DNA of 32,000 bases from Kiritimatiella glycovorans (GTDB lineage Bacteria > Verrucomicrobiota > Kiritimatiellia > Kiritimatiellales > Kiritimatiellaceae), in assembly GCF_001017655.1 (NCBI RefSeq), contig NZ_CP010904.1, forward strand, positions 1,710,001 through 1,742,000, given 5' to 3'. Below are positions 1,355 through 28,132 of this stretch, piece by piece; position 1 is the stretch's first letter, and each line of letters opens with the position of its first letter. The notes under the pieces are model-generated. The model was given only the letters and a program-made list of their open reading frames with translations. It did no database searches and was not told where the DNA came from. Both the position numbers and the translations under genes were made by a program.

Positions 1355-2370
1355 GATGACTCGTTTCTCCCGTCGATGGCCTGCCGGGCGGTGATGGCGA
1401 CTACGCCGATGATATCGTCGACGCTGCAGCCGCGCGAAAGGTCGTTGACCGGCCGGGCGAGACCCTGCAGCACGGGTCCGTAGGCCTCGGCTCCGCCGAG
1501 GCGCTGCACCAGCTTATACCCGATGTTTCCGGCGTTTAGATCGGGAAAGATGAGCACGCGCGCCTCGCCGCCGAGCGGGCTTCCGGGAGCCTTCCGCTCC
1601 GCCACGCCGGGAACGATGGCCGCGTCGACCTGGAGTTCGCCGTCCAGCGCCACTTCATGCTCTTCGCCGGACTCCGCGAGCATCTCCTGCGCCCTCCGGG
1701 TCGCCTCCACCACCTTCCGGGTCAACACACTGTCTGCCGAACCTTTCGTGGAGTAGGACAGCAGGGCCACGCGGGCGGGAATGCGGAACTGACGCGCGGA
1801 ACGGGAACTCTCGATGGCGATCTTTGCGAGCTGTTCGGCATCCGGGTTTTCCACGAGTCCGGCATCGGAAAAGATGTACGGAACCCCTTCGCACACCATA
1901 AAGAAAAGGCTCGATACCATCGAACCCTTCCGCTTGCCCCGCACGAGCTGCAGCGCGGGCCGGACCGTGTCGGCCGTCGAATGGACCGCGCCGGAGACGA
2001 GCCCGTCGGCCTCGCCCCCGCGCACCATCAGCATCCCGTATATGTTGGATTTGGTCACCGCCTCGCGCGCCTGTTCCTCCGTGACGCCCTTGTGCCGGCG
2101 CGCCTCATGGTAAAGCTCCGCGTATCGTCCGGCGTCCGGGGACTGCGCGGGATCGACGATCTTCAGGGAGTCGACTTCCATCCGCTGCTGACGATACCAT
2201 GACCGGATCTCCTCCTCCGGCCCCAGTAGCGTGACGTCCGCCAAACCCTCCGCGGCCGACCGGGCCGCCGCGCGGCGCACCCTCTCGTCGTCGCCTTCAG
2301 GCAGGACGATCCGGCATCCGCGGCCCCTGACCTGTTCCATCACTCCGGTTATGAAATCACTCGCACTCAT
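1351..2370 (-). CDS. pta: phosphate acetyltransferase (short form)
   Basis: Contains RIVLPEGDDERV, GAVHSTADTVRPALQ and NDLSRGCS, all Pta-like. I chose the internal ATG at 2370 (MSASDFITG...), which follows a GAGAGGA Shine-Dalgarno-like sequence. The 42 upstream codons of the track ORF look like non-coding read-through. Confidence 0.9.
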   Translation of the reverse strand: MSASDFITGVMEQVRGRGCRIVLPEGDDERVRRAAARSAAEGLADVTLLGPEEEIRSWYRQQRMEVDSLKIVDPAQSPDAGRYAELYHEARRHKGVTEEQAREAVTKSNIYGMLMVRGGEADGLVSGAVHSTADTVRPALQLVRGKRKGSMVSSLFFMVCEGVPYIFSDAGLVENPDAEQLAKIAIESSRSARQFRIPARVALLSYSTKGSADSVLTRKVVEATRRAQEMLAESGEEHEVALDGELQVDAAIVPGVAERKAPGSPLGGEARVLIFPDLNAGNIGYKLVQRLGGAEAYGPVLQGLARPVNDLSRGCSVDDIIGVVAITARQAIDGRNESS

Positions 2371-2469
2371 TCGCGTCCTCTCACTCGTCAACCGCCCTCT
2401 CTGCCGCCCCGATCCATCGTGTTCCGGGGGGCCTTTTTCCGCCGCTATTACGGCCCGCAAAAAAAACGG

Positions 2470-2499
2470 ACGCACTGTAACAGAGCACTTACGCACTGT
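2470..2499. promoter_or_regulatory. two direct copies of ACGCACTGT spaced 21 bp start to start, in the divergent pta / DUF4186 control region (candidate operator)
   Basis: ACGCACTGT occurs at 2470-2478 and 2491-2499. The 21-bp spacing equals two helical turns. The site lies in a non-coding gap between divergent genes. Confidence 0.25.
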
Positions 2500-2531
2500 C
2501 CAACCCTACCTCGAAACAAGTCTGAAATCGC

Positions 2532-2560
2532 TTGATTTTAAGCGGATTCCGGATTAAATT
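2532..2560 (+). promoter_or_regulatory. sigma70-like promoter candidate for the DUF4186-pcnB unit
   Basis: TTGATT (2532-2537), a 17-nt spacer, then TAAATT (2555-2560). It sits in the most AT-rich stretch of the gap. Confidence 0.35.
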
Positions 2561-2622
2561 CTATGCTCGCCCGAAGGAGTGGATCGCAACAGCGAACGCG
2601 CCGATTCAACGAAACCCGGGGC

Positions 2623-3027
2623 ATGATGGACTCCATGACGATGACCGCGACGATGACCAGGCTGGACAACTGGAAAGAGATCAGGCAGCGCTTCGAAAAA
2701 TCGAAGCACCGTCGTCAGTTCCAATTCGGTGAGGCCGAACGCGAATACGTAAGCTCACGCGGAATGGACATCATCCGCCGTCATGCAAGCGATTTTGTCC
2801 GCAAGCGGCTCCGGCCCGCCAATCCGCGCAACGACGGACGCCAGACCCCGACGAAAGGACATCCGGTTTTCATCGCCCAGCATGCGACCGCGACCTGCTG
2901 CCGCAAATGCCTCTCCAAAGTTCATCGCATCGAACTGGACCGACCGCTGACGGACGACGAGGCCGCGTTCGCGGTGAATGTGATCGTCCAGTGGATTGCG
3001 GATCAGATGAACACCCCTTCCACCTGA
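2623..3027 (+). CDS. DUF4186 family protein (function unknown)
   Basis: The motif GHPVFIAQHATATCCRKCL and overall layout match my recollection of DUF4186. The start is uncertain, with Met codons at 2623, 2626, 2635, 2641 and 2653. The track start at 2563 would lie inside or ahead of the predicted promoter. Confidence 0.7.
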   Translation: MMDSMTMTATMTRLDNWKEIRQRFEKSKHRRQFQFGEAEREYVSSRGMDIIRRHASDFVRKRLRPANPRNDGRQTPTKGHPVFIAQHATATCCRKCLSKVHRIELDRPLTDDEAAFAVNVIVQWIADQMNTPST

Positions 3028-3045: not shown

Positions 3046-4314
3046 ATGGACGACCGCTCAGAGACCCCCGCCGCCCCGCCCGCTGATCCTCAGGGATCTG
3101 CCGCGGTCATCGACCGCGGCAGTCATCCGGTGAGCCGCAGGAACATCAGCAGCGCCGCGATCAAGGTGCTCTACAGAATCAAGAACCACGGCCACCTCGC
3201 CTATCTCGCCGGAGGCGGCGTCCGCGATCTGCTTCTCAATCGCACTCCCAAGGATTTCGATATCGCCACCGACGCCACGCCCGAAGAACTGCGCGCCATG
3301 TTCAACAACTCGCGCATCATCGGGCGGCGATTCCGGCTCGTTCATGTGCTCTTCCGCGGGGAGATTATCGAAGTCTCCACCTTCCGCGCGGGGGTCAGGG
3401 CCGAAGACGCCGAACAGCATTCCGACCACGCATTCCGCACCGAGGACGGCGTGATCGTGCGGGATAACGTCTGGGGCACCGCCGCCCAGGACGCCCTGCG
3501 CCGCGACTTCACGGTCAATGCCCTGTTCTATAACATCGCCGATTTTTCGATCATCGATTACGTGGGCGGGCTCGAAGACATCGACCGGCGCACCATCCGC
3601 GTGATCGGCGATCCCACCGATCGCTTCACCGAGGACCCGGTGCGCATGATCCGCGCGATCCGTTTCGCCGCCACACTGGGATTCGATATCGAGGAGACGG
3701 CCCGCCGGTCTATCGGGGAACTTGGAGAAACCATGCAGGCCGCCTCGCCGGCCCGCCTCTACGAAGAGGTCCGCAAACTGTTCCTGTGCGGAAACGGGGA
3801 ACGGGTCTTTGAACTGCTCTCCGAGCTGGATTTCATCGAGCCGCTCTTCCCGGAACTCGGGGAGTGGCTGAAAGATCCCGAGGGCGAAGCGGGCGTACAC
3901 TGGATCCGAAACACGTTCCGCCAGCTCGACCGCTGGGTCGCGGCGGGACTGAAAGTGGATACGCCTCTCATGTTCGCGCTCCTGTTCGGGGCCTACCACG
4001 AACGCCGGGCCGAGACGCTCTGCCGGGAAGAGTCCCTGTCACCCGCCGCCGCGCTTCAGCAGGCGACGCACGATCATATCCTCCAGCTCGGCGAACGGAT
4101 CGCCATCCCGAAAAACGACCGGGCACGGATCGCCCGGATCATGGCCCTTCAGCCGCGTTTCCGTAAAACGACGCCGTCCAGAGTCCATAAGCTGGAACGA
4201 AATCCCCAGTTCCTCGACGCCTGGCTCTATTTCAAATTCGCCGCCAAGACGTTCGACCGCGACGGCAAAGAAGTGACGTTCTGGGAAAAACGCCATCGGG
4301 GGGAAGGGGGATGA
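3046..4314 (+). CDS. pcnB: poly(A) polymerase I / tRNA nucleotidyltransferase family protein (PcnB-like)
   Basis: AYLAGGGVRDLLLNRTPKDFDIAT (GG..RD...DxD nucleotidyltransferase core), RIIGRRFRLVHV and RDFTVNALFYN are typical of PcnB/CCA-adding enzymes. Confidence 0.85.
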   Translation: MDDRSETPAAPPADPQGSAAVIDRGSHPVSRRNISSAAIKVLYRIKNHGHLAYLAGGGVRDLLLNRTPKDFDIATDATPEELRAMFNNSRIIGRRFRLVHVLFRGEIIEVSTFRAGVRAEDAEQHSDHAFRTEDGVIVRDNVWGTAAQDALRRDFTVNALFYNIADFSIIDYVGGLEDIDRRTIRVIGDPTDRFTEDPVRMIRAIRFAATLGFDIEETARRSIGELGETMQAASPARLYEEVRKLFLCGNGERVFELLSELDFIEPLFPELGEWLKDPEGEAGVHWIRNTFRQLDRWVAAGLKVDTPLMFALLFGAYHERRAETLCREESLSPAAALQQATHDHILQLGERIAIPKNDRARIARIMALQPRFRKTTPSRVHKLERNPQFLDAWLYFKFAAKTFDRDGKEVTFWEKRHRGEGG

Positions 4315-4329
4315 GGGGGAGGATTTTGT

Positions 4330-4509
4330 GAGTGAGAAACCTGAAACCTGAGACCTGAGTAAGAGGGGGAGAGGTCTGAGTGAGAAACCTGAAACCTGAG
4401 ACCTGAGTAAGAGGGGGAGAGGTTTGAGTGAGAAACCTGAAACCTGAGACCTGAGTAAGAGGGGGAGAGGTTTGAGTGAGAAACCTGAAACCTGAGACCT
4501 GAGTAAGAG
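4330..4509 (+). repeat. tandem repeat, 3.75 copies of a 48-bp unit (left arm of a large inverted structure)
   Basis: Units lie at 4330-4377, 4378-4425, 4426-4473 and 4474-4509 (truncated). The unit is gagtgagaaacctgaaacctgagacctgagtaagagggggagaggtYt, and only one C/T position differs among copies. Each unit contains three consecutive heptads CCTGARN. Confidence 0.95.
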
Positions 4510-4561
4510 CTGCGGATTCCAAGGCTCACCCGCCTTTTCCCGTCGCAGCTTATGACCCCGC

Positions 4562-4604
4562 TCCTGAGTTCCACATGGGGACACCCGGGGGAATATCGTA
4601 CTCG
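4562..4604 (+). repeat. conserved 43-nt core, copy 1 (TCCTGAGTTCCACATGGGGACACCCGGGGGAATATCGTACTCG)
   Basis: 42/43 identical to 27615-27657 in the same orientation. It is preceded by a 7-bp hairpin (agctgcg 4508-4514 / cgcagct 4544-4550). Confidence 0.9.
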
Positions 4605-4682
4605 AATTATGTTCTCTCTGAATCCCGATTTCGGCTTCGATCCGGATTTCGAGATCCCATCCGCATCATCAAGCTTCCCACT

Positions 4683-4806
4683 CTCTTACTCAGGTTTCAG
4701 GTCTCAGGTTTCCCACTCATAAATCTTACTCAGGTCTCAGGTCTCAGGTTTCCCACTCATAAATCTTTCTCAGGTTTCTCACTCTCTTACTCCGCTTTCC
4801 CACTCA
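4683..4806 (-). repeat. degenerate reverse-complement copies of the 4330-4509 unit (right arm)
   Basis: Copies lie at 4683-4718, 4725-4758 and 4765-4784, plus a partial copy to about 4806, separated by ATAAAT. The reverse complement of 4683-4718 matches the first 36 nt of the left unit at 33/36 positions. Confidence 0.9.
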
Positions 4807-4809
4807 CCG

Positions 4810-5814
4810 TCACCCTCCCCCGCTCAGTTCCCTCATCGTATGCTCAAAGATGAGCCGGTCGCGGCGCGCGAGACGTGCGAGCCGCTCGCTCATGCGCTCC
4901 AGGGTGCGGAGGTGGTGAAGCGCGGTCGAGGGCGTGAGCCGCGAGGCGCCGCGGGCGAGCGCTTCGCGCCGCCCCCCGAAATGCAGGCAGGCGCAGTCGC
5001 CCGCCACGGTGAGCGTCCACAGGTCCCGGACCCAGGAGATCAATTCGGCCAGCACGGCGTTGCGCGCCTCGATCGTCCGGGTGCGGATGCGCGCCTCTAC
5101 CTCCTTGCGGTCCGGCTCTTCCCCCTCTGCCCCGATCTCGCGCTCTACTTCCGCCTCCGCTTCGGCCGCCGCCTCGTCGAGCAGATCGCACACCCGGGAG
5201 GCCAGTCCTTCCGCCTCGAGCGGATTGGAAGGAGGATACGCCTCGAGCAGATCAGCCAGGGACGCGGCGCGCGGATCGGCTTCGACACACCCCCCGCCCG
5301 ACGGCTTGAGCAGCTGGCATCGCGACCGGATGGTCGACAGCAGCGCGCCCGGACGTTCGGCGATCAGGATGAGGAGGGTGTTGTCCGGAGGCTCTTCCAG
5401 GGTCTTGAGAAACTTGTTCTGGGCGGCCGGGTGCAGGCATTCGGCCGAGAGAATGAGCCCCGCCTTCCATCCGCCTTCGTAGGCGGTCCGGGAGATCGGG
5501 GTGAGGACCTGTTCGCGGAGGTCTTCCACCCTGATCTGACGCGACTTGCTTTTCGGCTCGACCCGGTGCACGTCGGGGTGCGCGAGTTCCGCAACCCTGA
5601 CACACGGGCTGCAGACGCCGCAGGGCGGCGAGTCCGCAGTGCAGTAGAGGATCTGAATCATGGACTCGGCCAGACGCAGCGCGGCGCCGCGGGGTGCGCC
5701 GGCGATCAGATAGGCGTGGGCGAGGCGCCCCCGTTCCCGGCTCCGAAGCACGCCCTCCCAGGCCTGATCGTAACCGGCCGTATCCGGTCGGGTCACCTCC
5801 GCCCCCGGGGTCAT
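4810..5814 (-). CDS. holB: DNA polymerase III subunit delta prime
   Basis: HAYLIAGAPRGAA, a CGVCSPC zinc module, LKTLEEPP and STIRSRCQ are delta-prime/clamp-loader motifs. I chose the ATG at 5814, which overlaps the tmk stop (ATGA); an alternative ATG is at 5823. The longer track ORF would overlap tmk extensively. Confidence 0.85.
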   Translation of the reverse strand: MTPGAEVTRPDTAGYDQAWEGVLRSRERGRLAHAYLIAGAPRGAALRLAESMIQILYCTADSPPCGVCSPCVRVAELAHPDVHRVEPKSKSRQIRVEDLREQVLTPISRTAYEGGWKAGLILSAECLHPAAQNKFLKTLEEPPDNTLLILIAERPGALLSTIRSRCQLLKPSGGGCVEADPRAASLADLLEAYPPSNPLEAEGLASRVCDLLDEAAAEAEAEVEREIGAEGEEPDRKEVEARIRTRTIEARNAVLAELISWVRDLWTLTVAGDCACLHFGGRREALARGASRLTPSTALHHLRTLERMSERLARLARRDRLIFEHTMRELSGGG

Positions 5815-6458
5815 GGCAGCCATCCCGTGTCTGAAATTTCCCGCCACAACGTCGCGAACACCTCCTCCGGCGGCGCGGATGCGTCGATGACCCGAAACCG
5901 GCCCGGTTCCCCGCGGGCGAGGTCGAGGTATCCCTCCCGGATGCGGCGGTGGAACTCGATCGGCTCGCGCTCGATCCGGTCCGGCGCGCTCGATCCGTCC
6001 GCGAACAGCGGCTCCAGCCGCGCCATACCGGTCTCCGCCGGCAGATCCAGCAGCAGGGTGAGATCGGGCATCACGCCCGCGACGGCGAACCGGTTCAGTC
6101 CGTCCAGCGCATCGGCAGAGAGTCCGCGCCCCGGACCCTGATAGACGGTGGTGGAATCCAGGTAGCGGTCGCCGACCACCCATTCGCCGCGCTCCAGGGC
6201 GGGTCCGATCACCCGGGCGGCCAGCTGCGCCCGACTGGCGGCGAAGAGCAGCACCTCGCAGCGCGCCGTCATGGCCTCTTCCGTCTCCCGGTGCTGGAGG
6301 AGTTCGCGAATGGCCTCGCCGATCTCCGTCCCGCCCGGTTCGCGCACGTGGCGCACGGTAAGGCCCCGATCCTGAAGCGAAGCGACCAGCCGGCGGGCCT
6401 GCGTGGTCTTACCGCCGCCCTCCGGCCCCTCGAATGTGATGAAGCGACCTGTTTTCAT
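5811..6458 (-). CDS. tmk: thymidylate kinase
   Basis: FITFEGPEGGGKTTQ P-loop and a DRY motif. Length is 215 aa. Confidence 0.95.
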   Translation of the reverse strand: MKTGRFITFEGPEGGGKTTQARRLVASLQDRGLTVRHVREPGGTEIGEAIRELLQHRETEEAMTARCEVLLFAASRAQLAARVIGPALERGEWVVGDRYLDSTTVYQGPGRGLSADALDGLNRFAVAGVMPDLTLLLDLPAETGMARLEPLFADGSSAPDRIEREPIEFHRRIREGYLDLARGEPGRFRVIDASAPPEEVFATLWREISDTGWLP

Positions 6459-23362: not shown

Positions 23363-23576
23363 GAGCCACGAAAAAAGCACAGGGGCAGCAAGAAAAGAAG
23401 TGCCACAAAGAAGCACAAGAAATACAGAAGAAGCCACAAAAAAGCACAAGACGCACAGAAGATCCCACAGAAGAAGCCACTTATTTCACAGCCGGAAAAG
23501 GCACCTCTCTTCTGTGTCTCCTGTGCCTTTTTGTGGCCGTTTTTCTCATTCCCCTCTTCTGTGCCCTTTTGCGGCC
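23363..23576. repeat. intra-operon spacer made of roughly 33-bp purine-rich units in direct and inverted orientation (long imperfect hairpin)
   Basis: Plus-strand units of the type GCCACAAAAAAGCACAAG..CACAGAAGA begin near 23364, 23400 and 23433. Reverse-complement units lie at 23509-23537 and 23551-23574. Segment 23433-23461 matches the reverse complement of 23509-23537 at 25/29 positions. Confidence 0.85.
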
Positions 23577-27479: not shown

Positions 27480-27495
27480 GATGCGACTCCTTTAC

Positions 27496-27556
27496 TGTGC
27501 GCACACTGTAGCAGAACCGGGAACCGGATGGGAATGAGCGCACGCCCCGGTTCTGC
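27496..27556 (-). promoter_or_regulatory. palindrome plus 11-bp perfect stem in the leader/promoter of the SDR-speA operon
   Basis: A 10-bp perfect palindrome TGTGCGCACA lies at 27496-27505, flanked by ACTGT on both sides and 17 nt upstream of the SDR ATG. The stem gcagaaccggg (27511-27521) pairs with cccggttctgc (27546-27556) around a 24-nt loop. Confidence 0.4.
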
Positions 27557-27614
27557 GAGCCTCTTGCACCCCCCGCAGCGCGGCGCCTGACGGCTTGCGT
27601 CGCGGGGCGTTTTG

Positions 27615-27657
27615 TCCTGAGTTCAACATGGGGACACCCGGGGGAATATCGTACTCG
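27615..27657 (+). repeat. conserved 43-nt core, copy 2 (TCCTGAGTTCAACATGGGGACACCCGGGGGAATATCGTACTCG)
   Basis: 42/43 identical to 4562-4604 in the same orientation. It is preceded by a GC hairpin (ccccgc 27571-27576 / gcgggg 27602-27607). Confidence 0.9.
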
Positions 27658-27757
27658 TACTCGTACTCAGCGAAGGGGTACTCGTACTCAAATTCCTTGA
27701 ATCGGGGGATGGGATCGCGCCTTCGGCGCTCCGAGTACGCGTACCGAGTACGAGTAC
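27651..27757 (+). repeat. inverted hexamer-repeat hairpin (GTACTC x5 facing GAGTAC x3 plus a partial copy)
   Basis: GTACTC occurs at 27651, 27657, 27663, 27678 and 27684. GAGTAC occurs at 27733, 27746 and 27752. Segment 27677-27689 pairs with 27733-27745 at 12/13 positions, and 27651-27668 can pair with 27746-27757 over 12 bp. The apical part contains a small GC stem with a CUUCG loop (27717-27729). Confidence 0.9.
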
Positions 27758-28132
27758 GGATTTCGTTCCCCCCCCCCTTCAACCCACCTTCATGCTCATC
27801 ATGTGAAGGTAGGGATTCTGCCGGACAGCAGAAGGCCGTCCGCAAAAGAGCGGCGCGCTTAGCCTGTCCGCCGAAGGCATAAAGGGCCGAAGGCGGAGAG
27901 ATCACGCCCTACCCGTAAATCGCAAAGATGAATGAGAAGAGCACAGGCAAAGAAATGGTGCGTTCTCTCTTCGTGGCGACCGCCGCAGGCGGGCGACGCG
28001 AAGGGTTCTGCAAGAGCCTCCTGCGTGAACTTTTTTCATTAGCTCATAAACTCAAATCGATATTCACGGGCGGGCCGGGCTGCCCTAAGATGCCGCGATG
28101 GATTGTGTACGGGTTAAACGAAGAGCCTTTGG

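Follow-up and report, generated by a model that had tools for sequence, protein, structure and literature searches.

What is a 43-nt sequence that recurs almost unchanged some 23 kb away, each time in hairpin-rich intergenic DNA? The question is raised by a stretch of 32,000 nucleotides of Kiritimatiella glycovorans (contig NZ_CP010904.1, positions 1,710,001 to 1,742,000), which was analysed as a whole and is called the window here. A preliminary description had considered a family of small structured RNA genes and a mobile element akin to the miniature inverted-repeat transposable elements (MITEs), repetitive extragenic palindromes (REPs) or PATE, as well as a DNA signal bound by protein. We conclude, with a probability of roughly 0.7, that a small selfish cassette of Kiritimatiellia has the 43-mer as its left terminal module and that the two copies in the window are gene-less derivatives of this cassette, decayed mobile DNA and not a new RNA gene. 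A candidate 'new RNA family' is replaced in this way by a concrete, testable identity.

The 43-mer, TCCTGAGTTC[C/A]ACATGGGGACACCCGGGGGAATATCGTACTCG, occurs on the + strand at 4562-4604 with no mismatch (copy 1) and at 27615-27657 with one (copy 2). The two are identical at 42/43 positions, differ by C/A at position 11 and stand 23,053 bp apart in direct orientation. Their recurrence had been held to be beyond chance and this was confirmed: 100 shuffles of the window that preserve dinucleotides yielded no match. Two is the copy count within the 32 kb, and the 43-mer is the only substantial dispersed repeat there, the other multi-copy families being tandem arrays or 71-86% matches within coding sequence.

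Alignment of the two copies is confined to the core. The local-alignment test finds no likeness between their upstream regions (180 of 500 shuffles do as well), and the ~80 nt downstream of the core show a weak, significant one (local score 35 versus 20.7 +/- 3.7, reached by 2/500 shuffles). The core alone folds weakly, at -10 to -12 kcal/mol, and is no palindrome. Open reading frames (ORFs) start from an ATG within it, coding for 92 aa in copy 1 and 84 aa in copy 2 (95 aa from an upstream TTG), and were rejected as proteins. They have only 10 codons in common (MGTPGGISYS), after which the shared downstream CGGATTTCG is read in different frames; hence the core is conserved at the nucleotide level.

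Scanning the left half of the core (CCTGAGTTCMACATGGGGAC) against metagenomes led to two contigs of ~1 kb, L007 and L008. They share a 620-bp block of 94% identity between unrelated flanks, and the likeness runs exactly from CCTGAG to CTCAGG. This full element (~620 bp) begins with CCTGAGTTCAACATGGGGACACCC and ends with its perfect inverse, ATGTTGAACTCAGG. In both contigs the block is laid out as CCTGAGTTCAACAT GGGGACACCC GAACAATATT, (CGTAAT)n, an ORF of 132 aa on the other strand, (ATTACG)n, ~85 nt and ATGTTGAACTCAGG. The full elements therefore carry a perfect 14-bp terminal inverted repeat and subterminal inverted hexamer arrays, (GTAATC)n on one side and (GATTAC)n on the other.

Further copies share both or one of these ends. 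A metagenome-assembled genome (L019) contains a 619-bp block with identical ends in a third context, between ribF and the moaE operon. L020/L021 hold a right-truncated copy, whose left terminus is the C variant as in window copy 1. In L007 and L019, GGGACACCC stands near both ends in direct orientation, and AACTCAG is found again ~60 nt inside the right end. Repeated binding sites are one possible meaning of these motifs.

The window copies were linked to this element with an nhmmer profile built from the three full elements (L007, L008 and L019). Run on the window, it matches at the two cores only, in both cases from model position 1: 27616-27690 of copy 2 aligns with model positions 1-66 (E 2e-7) and 4563-4607 of copy 1 with positions 1-46 (E 5e-4). 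Since both matches start at position 1, the core is the left terminus of the element together with the first array units. Between K. glycovorans and the metagenomic elements, 22-24 of the first 24 nt (CCTGAGTTCMACATKGGGACACCC) are identical, the next ~10 nt differ and then the arrays follow, of GTACTC units in the former versus GTAATC in the latter. The sharp left edge of the core is thus the element terminus and its right edge is the start of the array.

The protein of the full cassette belongs to a known family. The L007 ORF matches PF05635 (23S rRNA intervening-sequence protein) at 5.8e-20 and TIGR02436 (four helix bundle protein) at 1.4e-18, and the cassette protein also matches PDB 2GSC at 1.7e-8. 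No PF05635-like coding sequence is present in either copy or anywhere in the window (tblastn best E 0.58). The full element of L007 folds into a terminal stem of 14 bp and an array stem around the ORF, at -232.8 kcal/mol (z = -7.3).

Homologues of the L007 ORF with 78-97% identity are very numerous, and those that are named come from Kiritimatiellia or Verrucomicrobia. They sit mostly on short contigs (most <2 kb), as is typical of repeats that break assemblies, so the cassettes probably fragment metagenome assemblies of Kiritimatiellia-group bacteria. All loci fetched have (GTAATC/CTAATC/GTACTC/CTACTC/CTCCCT)n arrays on one side of the gene and inverse arrays on the opposite side. Only one subfamily, comprising L007, L008, L019, L020/L021 and K. 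glycovorans, carries the terminal CCTGAGTTC module. The strand asymmetry of G-U versus A-C in the array stems, taken as a sign of selection for RNA of one strand, gave mixed results.

The number of array units differs between otherwise identical contexts (L023, L026, L028 and L029), so the arrays slip. In these four loci and L032, from several metagenomes, the cassette (gene at 1501-1899) lies downstream of a giant TPS/DUF3739 gene and has 4-7 (GTAATC) units versus 7-12 (GATTAC/GATTAG) units on the other side. Of 7 distinct contexts across the family, 6 have the cassette gene codirectional with the host gene upstream.

Tandem cassettes are found in L022 and L037-L039. The latter (gene at 1201-1599 or 867-1265) carry a full copy, the start of a second full copy and a gene-less unit, whose arrays stand just ~27 nt apart, the gap consisting of the ORF-flanking leaders. 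This gene-less unit is a direct precedent for window copy 2. In L022 two cassettes stand in tandem at ~2150-3000, and the Fic gene beside them has 29 bp of its 3' end (ACCGGCCAGTTAAAAGGAACACGCTACCA) duplicated between the two.

Another end subfamily is represented at ~2900-3500 of L012, by a cassette with a core-like left end, CTTGAGTTCC. It is flanked by an 11-bp direct repeat, GGCGTTCTCTT, perhaps left by target duplication or as a scar of recombination. In L012-L015 a Y1 transposase gene of IS200-like type (Y1_Tnp, PF01797) occurs at 5520-6002, ~2 kb from one four-helix-bundle cassette, a proximity that proves no link.

Copy 2 retains much of the cassette layout (Table 1). Extending from 27616 to ~27813, it begins with the terminus and a left array; a 43-nt centre separates this array from the right one, after which a C10 tract and a small hairpin lead to a degenerate end. 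Its (GTACTC)n array is the counterpart of the (GTAATC)n array in L007, L008 and L019. The two arrays contain the inverted repeats I2-I7, of 12-14 nt each with 92-100% complementarity, and are predicted to pair as a stem in the minimum-free-energy fold of the copy, at -89.2 kcal/mol (z = -5.2). The right-terminal region resembles the downstream region of copy 1. The C10 tract immediately after the right array is a potential slippage site. The hairpin upstream of the copy looks like a terminator with a T run (27594-27610) on the + strand; on one side it has the SDR start codon and on the other the element, and no + strand gene precedes it.

Of the two arrays, copy 1 retains only the right one, in degenerate form. 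The copy extends from 4563 to ~4694. Its terminus includes 1.3 hexamer units and is followed, after a spacer of 14 nt, by this degenerate array (4616-4656), which can be aligned with (GAGTAC)n in copy 2; the part to the right of it is diverged and ends in CTTACTCAGG. The predicted stem of this element is weak (z = -2.3). Far stronger is the fold of the whole intergenic region 4315-4809, at -236.8 kcal/mol (z = -10), which is a giant hairpin with the core near its apex and with outer arrays as arms, 81-93% complementary. The outer arrays (4313-4509 and 4684-4805) contain 8 CCTGAG and 6 CTCAGG, heptamer-like copies of the element terminus. A nested insertion, end duplication or co-expanding slippage are all possible origins for them.

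Both upstream hairpins (4508-4550 and 27571-27607) fold as described, CGGATTTCG does lie at 4643-4651 and 27757-27765, and folding predicts the hairpin of TGAATCC with GGATTTCG in copy 1. The TGAATC motif was correctly placed at 4619-4624 in copy 1 and one base off in copy 2, where the true site is 27698-27703. What the preliminary description did not see is that the hairpin-rich surroundings are tandem arrays with their inverted copies, 48 nt x4.1 versus 40 nt x2.3 around copy 1 and (GTACTC)n versus (GAGTAC)n in copy 2.

Taken together, the following model explains the repeat best. The terminal module comprises the 14-bp terminal repeat CCTGAGTTC[A/C]ACAT, the GGGGACACCC box, a spacer of ~10 nt and the first hexanucleotide-array units. 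The full cassette of ~620 bp runs from this left terminus through a (GTAATC)n-type array, the 132-aa PF05635/TIGR02436 ('S23p') gene on the opposite strand, an inverted (GATTAC)n-type array and ~85 nt to ATGTTGAACTCAGG. Its termini and arrays are predicted to pair as one long stem enclosing the gene, as in the rRNA intervening sequences. The window copies could have arisen by internal deletion or slippage between the arrays. The conserved terminus is presumably recognised by a recombination or processing machinery, and the stems may be cut by RNase III upon read-through from the host genes.

The homology of the core to the terminus, the discrete boundaries in differing flanks, the loss of the gene and the hairpin-forming arrays of variable unit number are observed. 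Several results weigh against the cassette model. The right ends of the window copies show homology to L007 and L019 no higher than shuffles do. Neither copy has a significant right inverted repeat, the best inverse of the left 20 nt being 7 nt in copy 1 (equalled by 17.75% of 2000 shuffles) and, in copy 2, a gapped 8 nt (p = 0.61 by shuffles). Neither a target-site duplication nor a conserved target is apparent where L007, L008, L019 and the window copies meet their flanks. No transposase or recombinase tied to the element was seen in the fetched loci, so its mobility is deduced only from the identical boundaries in differing flanks. The core is 98% identical between the copies and the remainder far more diverged, which calls for selection on the terminus, gene conversion or independent insertions. 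Lastly, copy 1 has its outer arrays beyond the core and with the purine-rich arm at the 5' side, a polarity opposite to the canonical cassettes that the model leaves unexplained.

In a rival history the copies are solo left ends, footprints left after cassette deletion that have no right end or present function, and the arrays arose by independent local slippage. Only the left 43-75 nt match the full-element profile, and L020/L021 show that right-truncated copies exist. This history has a share of the probability, above all for copy 1, because the right ends lack demonstrable homology or inverted repeat (p = 0.18 and 0.61). However, copy 2 has kept both complementary hexamer arrays, and the significant likeness of the ~80 nt downstream of the cores suggests a shared, diverged right part. 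We regard it as unlikely. A different history makes the cores attL/attR-type direct repeats around an integrated island of 23 kb, as their length, common orientation and spacing would allow. This reading was rejected because the DNA between them is housekeeping (holB, cysS, clpX, clpP, rho, coaE, fpg, leuCD and the genes of the polyamine pathway). No integrase turned up when the main ORFs of the interval were scanned with Pfam, the core is outside the tRNA and tmRNA families by Rfam, and its sequence is elsewhere the end of a 620-bp element; such an island is scarcely credible.

A structured-RNA gene family is left without support by the empty Rfam result, by the conservation of the terminal 43 nt only and by the position of TGAATC and CGGATTTCG within degenerate hexamer arrays. 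The preliminary description recognised no named RNA family in the element. In Rfam, the window has no match that reaches the gathering score; with E relaxed to 10, what appears are chance matches to eukaryotic long non-coding RNA or sok models, all far below threshold. In another reading the core would be a conserved promoter, or a small RNA family's 5' domain, driving divergent and hairpin-rich transcription at the two loci. It has about the length of a promoter (-42 to +1), with TTC[C/A]AC and GAATAT read from its letters 16-17 nt apart, a terminator-like hairpin stands directly upstream of copy 2 and the downstream sequence folds strongly. Yet a sigma-70 scan finds no promoter-like site at either locus, and no consistent gene follows in either orientation. 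Moreover, the left boundary is the exact terminus of a discrete element elsewhere, where the core lies 3' of the cassette gene and antisense to it, and the ORFs from the core ATG diverge after their 10 codons. These results, with the silence of Rfam, make a promoter or small RNA improbable.

Among the candidates of the preliminary description, the MITE-like option comes closest to the truth. A mobile element is indeed favoured, since the homology between the core and the end of a discrete element begins at the first base of the core. An ordinary MITE and the REP/RAYT kind are not. The latter is unsupported because the core is no palindrome, and the copies stand in the same orientation 23 kb apart. 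The window copies resemble MITEs in being ~130-200 bp long, intergenic and hairpin-forming, in having no ORF of the cassette gene and in sharing the left end with a longer, multi-copy element of 620 bp. Unlike the partners of MITEs, this full-length relative encodes the four-helix-bundle protein only and no transposase. The full-length relatives have 14-bp terminal inverted repeats, whereas in the window copies the right one does not rise above chance, and a target-site duplication is found neither at L007, L008 and L019 nor at the window copies.

The closest known kind is the S23p intervening sequence (IVS) of 23S rRNA in Leptospira, Coxiella burnetii, Xanthomonas and Brucella. In the S23p IVSs the terminal inverted repeats pair into a stem that RNase III cuts, and the Coxiella IVS has tandem heptamers of variable number beside an ORF that decays (PMC4990558). 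Both they and the cassettes are small selfish elements with a PF05635 ('S23p') four-helix-bundle ORF, enclose this ORF in a long stem of terminal inverted repeats, contain variable short tandem repeats and have lost or decayed the ORF in some copies. Since the fold of the full element matches this architecture, the cassette family is read by analogy as IVS-like selfish elements outside rRNA. The long stems may also act at the RNA level, for instance through processing by RNase III of the kind known from the rRNA intervening sequences.

The match to IVSs is partial. IVSs are inserted in helix 9, 25 or 45 of 23S rRNA, whereas the window copies and their relatives lie between protein genes, with no rRNA in the window by Rfam. 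The cassettes are intergenic in many contexts and sometimes in tandem, their stems are made of hexanucleotide arrays and one subfamily has the extra 14-bp terminal repeat module. Stem-forming terminal inverted repeats are found in L007 (z = -7.3) and as the array stem of copy 2 (z = -5.2), and weakly in copy 1 (z = -2.3). The S23p/PF05635 ORF is present in the relatives and absent from both window copies.

The PF05635 proteins resemble Avd of the diversity-generating retroelements (PMC10053308), with 2GSC as structural representative. The likeness of the cassettes to Avd systems is at the protein level only; unlike them, the fetched cassettes adjoin no reverse transcriptase, template repeat or variable repeat.

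Integron cassettes and attC arrays (CALINs) show another likeness, as they too are small, possibly promoterless ORF units with imperfect inverted repeats that can stand in tandem, make no target duplication and follow upstream transcription. The attC consensus is a hairpin of 57-141 bp that lies 3' of the ORF and has R'' RYYYAAC and R' GTTRRRY as its ends. On this model a tyrosine recombinase, acting on the hairpin, would move the element as an integron-like cassette or a folded site of attC type. The A-variant termini do contain GTTCAAC, which fits RYYYAAC, and GTTGAAC, which fits GTTRRRY, and the tandem cassettes with gene-less units among them, the codirectional gene in 6/7 contexts and the missing target duplication agree with it. 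However, the hairpin arms of the cassette enclose the ORF, where an attC site would be 57-141 bp long and stand 3' of it. The termini fit the attC core motifs in part only. The C variant of copy 1 (GTTCCAC) breaks the motif, a degenerate 7-mer match has a chance expectation of ~1% and no integrase appears in any fetched locus table. We consider this route very improbable.

The selfish-cassette reading can be extended. The four-helix-bundle cassettes of Kiritimatiellia would then be an undescribed class of mobile units outside rRNA, with stems of hexamer arrays, a conserved terminus of 24 nt, tandem arrays, gene-less miniatures and no duplication of the target, which spread by a hairpin-dependent or RNA-level route without a transposase of their own, possibly with the Avd-like protein. 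The K. glycovorans miniatures would be kept as giant-stem sites for RNase III processing or as insulators between genes. This extension is tentative and, taken as a whole, doubtful. The protein family and the rRNA intervening sequences are already known; we found no earlier account of the dispersed cassettes. The open-access literature gave no description of dispersed hexamer-array cassettes or miniatures outside rRNA, and the description paper of K. glycovorans does not mention repeats.

The identification implies that the S23p/four-helix-bundle intervening-sequence elements have abundant relatives outside rRNA in Kiritimatiellia, with sharp ends, slippage-prone hexamer stems and gene-less derivatives. 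The conserved 24-nt terminus offers a handle for tracing the recognition machinery. The exact central 23-mer of the core has no match in the GTDB genomes and JGI metagenomes, a set without the source loci. An 18-mer of the right half matches in three genomes, on contigs of Lentimicrobiaceae, Bacteroidetes and Thermococcus, and these matches were judged from their taxa to be chance. Nothing relevant was found among viral contigs and plasmids, and the cassette protein has no entry in PADLOC.

Table 1. Features of the two element copies and of the genes around them in the window
Feature	Position	Strand	Description
Genes before copy 1: ackA, pta, DUF4186 gene, pcnB	pcnB 3046-4314	+ (pcnB)	Pfam matches
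Copy 1 intergenic region	4315-4809		
Outer tandem array left of copy 1	4313-4509	+	48-nt unit x4.1; CCTGAG twice per unit, unit end ACCTGAGTAAGAG
Hairpin upstream of copy 1	4508-4550	+	AGCTGCG ... CGCAGCT, 12 nt before core; flanking, not common to copy 2
Core copy 1	4562-4604	+	Element left terminus from 4563 (CCTGAGTTCCACAT), then GGGGACACCC box, spacer, 1.3 hexamer units (CGTACTCG)
Degenerate right hexamer array, copy 1	4616-4656	+	GAATCC CGATTT CGGCTT CGATCC GGATTT CG; self-folding; holds TGAATC and CGGATTTCG
Putative right-terminal region, copy 1	4657-4694	+	Ends CTTACTCAGG (4685-4694); boundary uncertain
Outer tandem array right of copy 1	4684-4805	+	40-nt unit x2.3 (4684-4775) and degenerate 21-nt unit; inverse of left array
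holB	4810-6183	-	Pfam
Genes after holB: cysS, clpX, clpP, rho, coaE, fpg, AI-2E transporter, leuCD, speB, nspC-like, carboxynorspermidine dehydrogenase-like gene, speA, SDR	SDR reaches 27479	- (SDR)	Pfam
Copy 2 intergenic region	27480-28132		
GC hairpin upstream of copy 2	27571-27613	+	Then GTTTTG; flanking, not common to copy 1
Core copy 2	27615-27657	+	Element left terminus from 27616 (CCTGAGTTCAACAT), then GGGGACACCC box, start of hexamer array
Left hexamer array, copy 2	27651-27689	+	(GTACTC)x3, 9-nt interruption, (GTACTC)x2; runs on directly from core
Central segment, copy 2	27690-27732	+	43 nt, small GC hairpin; position held by four-helix-bundle ORF in full-length relatives
Right inverted hexamer array, copy 2	27733-27765	+	GAGTAC GCGTAC C GAGTAC GAGTAC GGATTTCG; pairs with left array; (GAGTAC)n at 27733-27757
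Putative right-terminal region, copy 2	27766-27813	+	C10 tract 27768-27777, hairpin 27783-27813, degenerate end ATGTGAAGGTAGG 27801-27813; boundary uncertain
Genes 3' of copy 2 region: MFS_2 transporter, sulfatase		+ (MFS_2 transporter)	Pfam

The gene contexts had been correctly assigned from the start, with copy 1 between the convergent pcnB (+) and holB (-) and copy 2 between the divergent SDR-speA (-) and MFS_2 transporter and sulfatase (+). The window pcnB matches the K. glycovorans protein at 100% identity, and its next relatives are ~60% identical. At the orthologous pcnB loci of relatives, the element is absent and the downstream synteny is not kept. The holB ORF as listed has 457 aa, with the DNA_pol3_delta2 domain from residue 142, and its true start is probably further downstream.

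The - strand segment 21332-27479 contains a complete-looking cluster for the alternative polyamine (norspermidine/spermidine) pathway, made up of speA, Sacchrp_dh (like carboxynorspermidine dehydrogenase, CANSDH), Orn_DAP_Arg_deC (nspC-like) and an arginase-family speB, with the SDR gene at its head. Within it, a 31-nt tandem repeat x2.4 (GCCACAAAGAAGCACAAGAAACACAGAAGAA) at 23402-23480 spans the surroundings of the nspC-like gene start and the gap before the carboxynorspermidine dehydrogenase-like gene. This repeat is A-rich and the neighbouring DNA is GC-rich.

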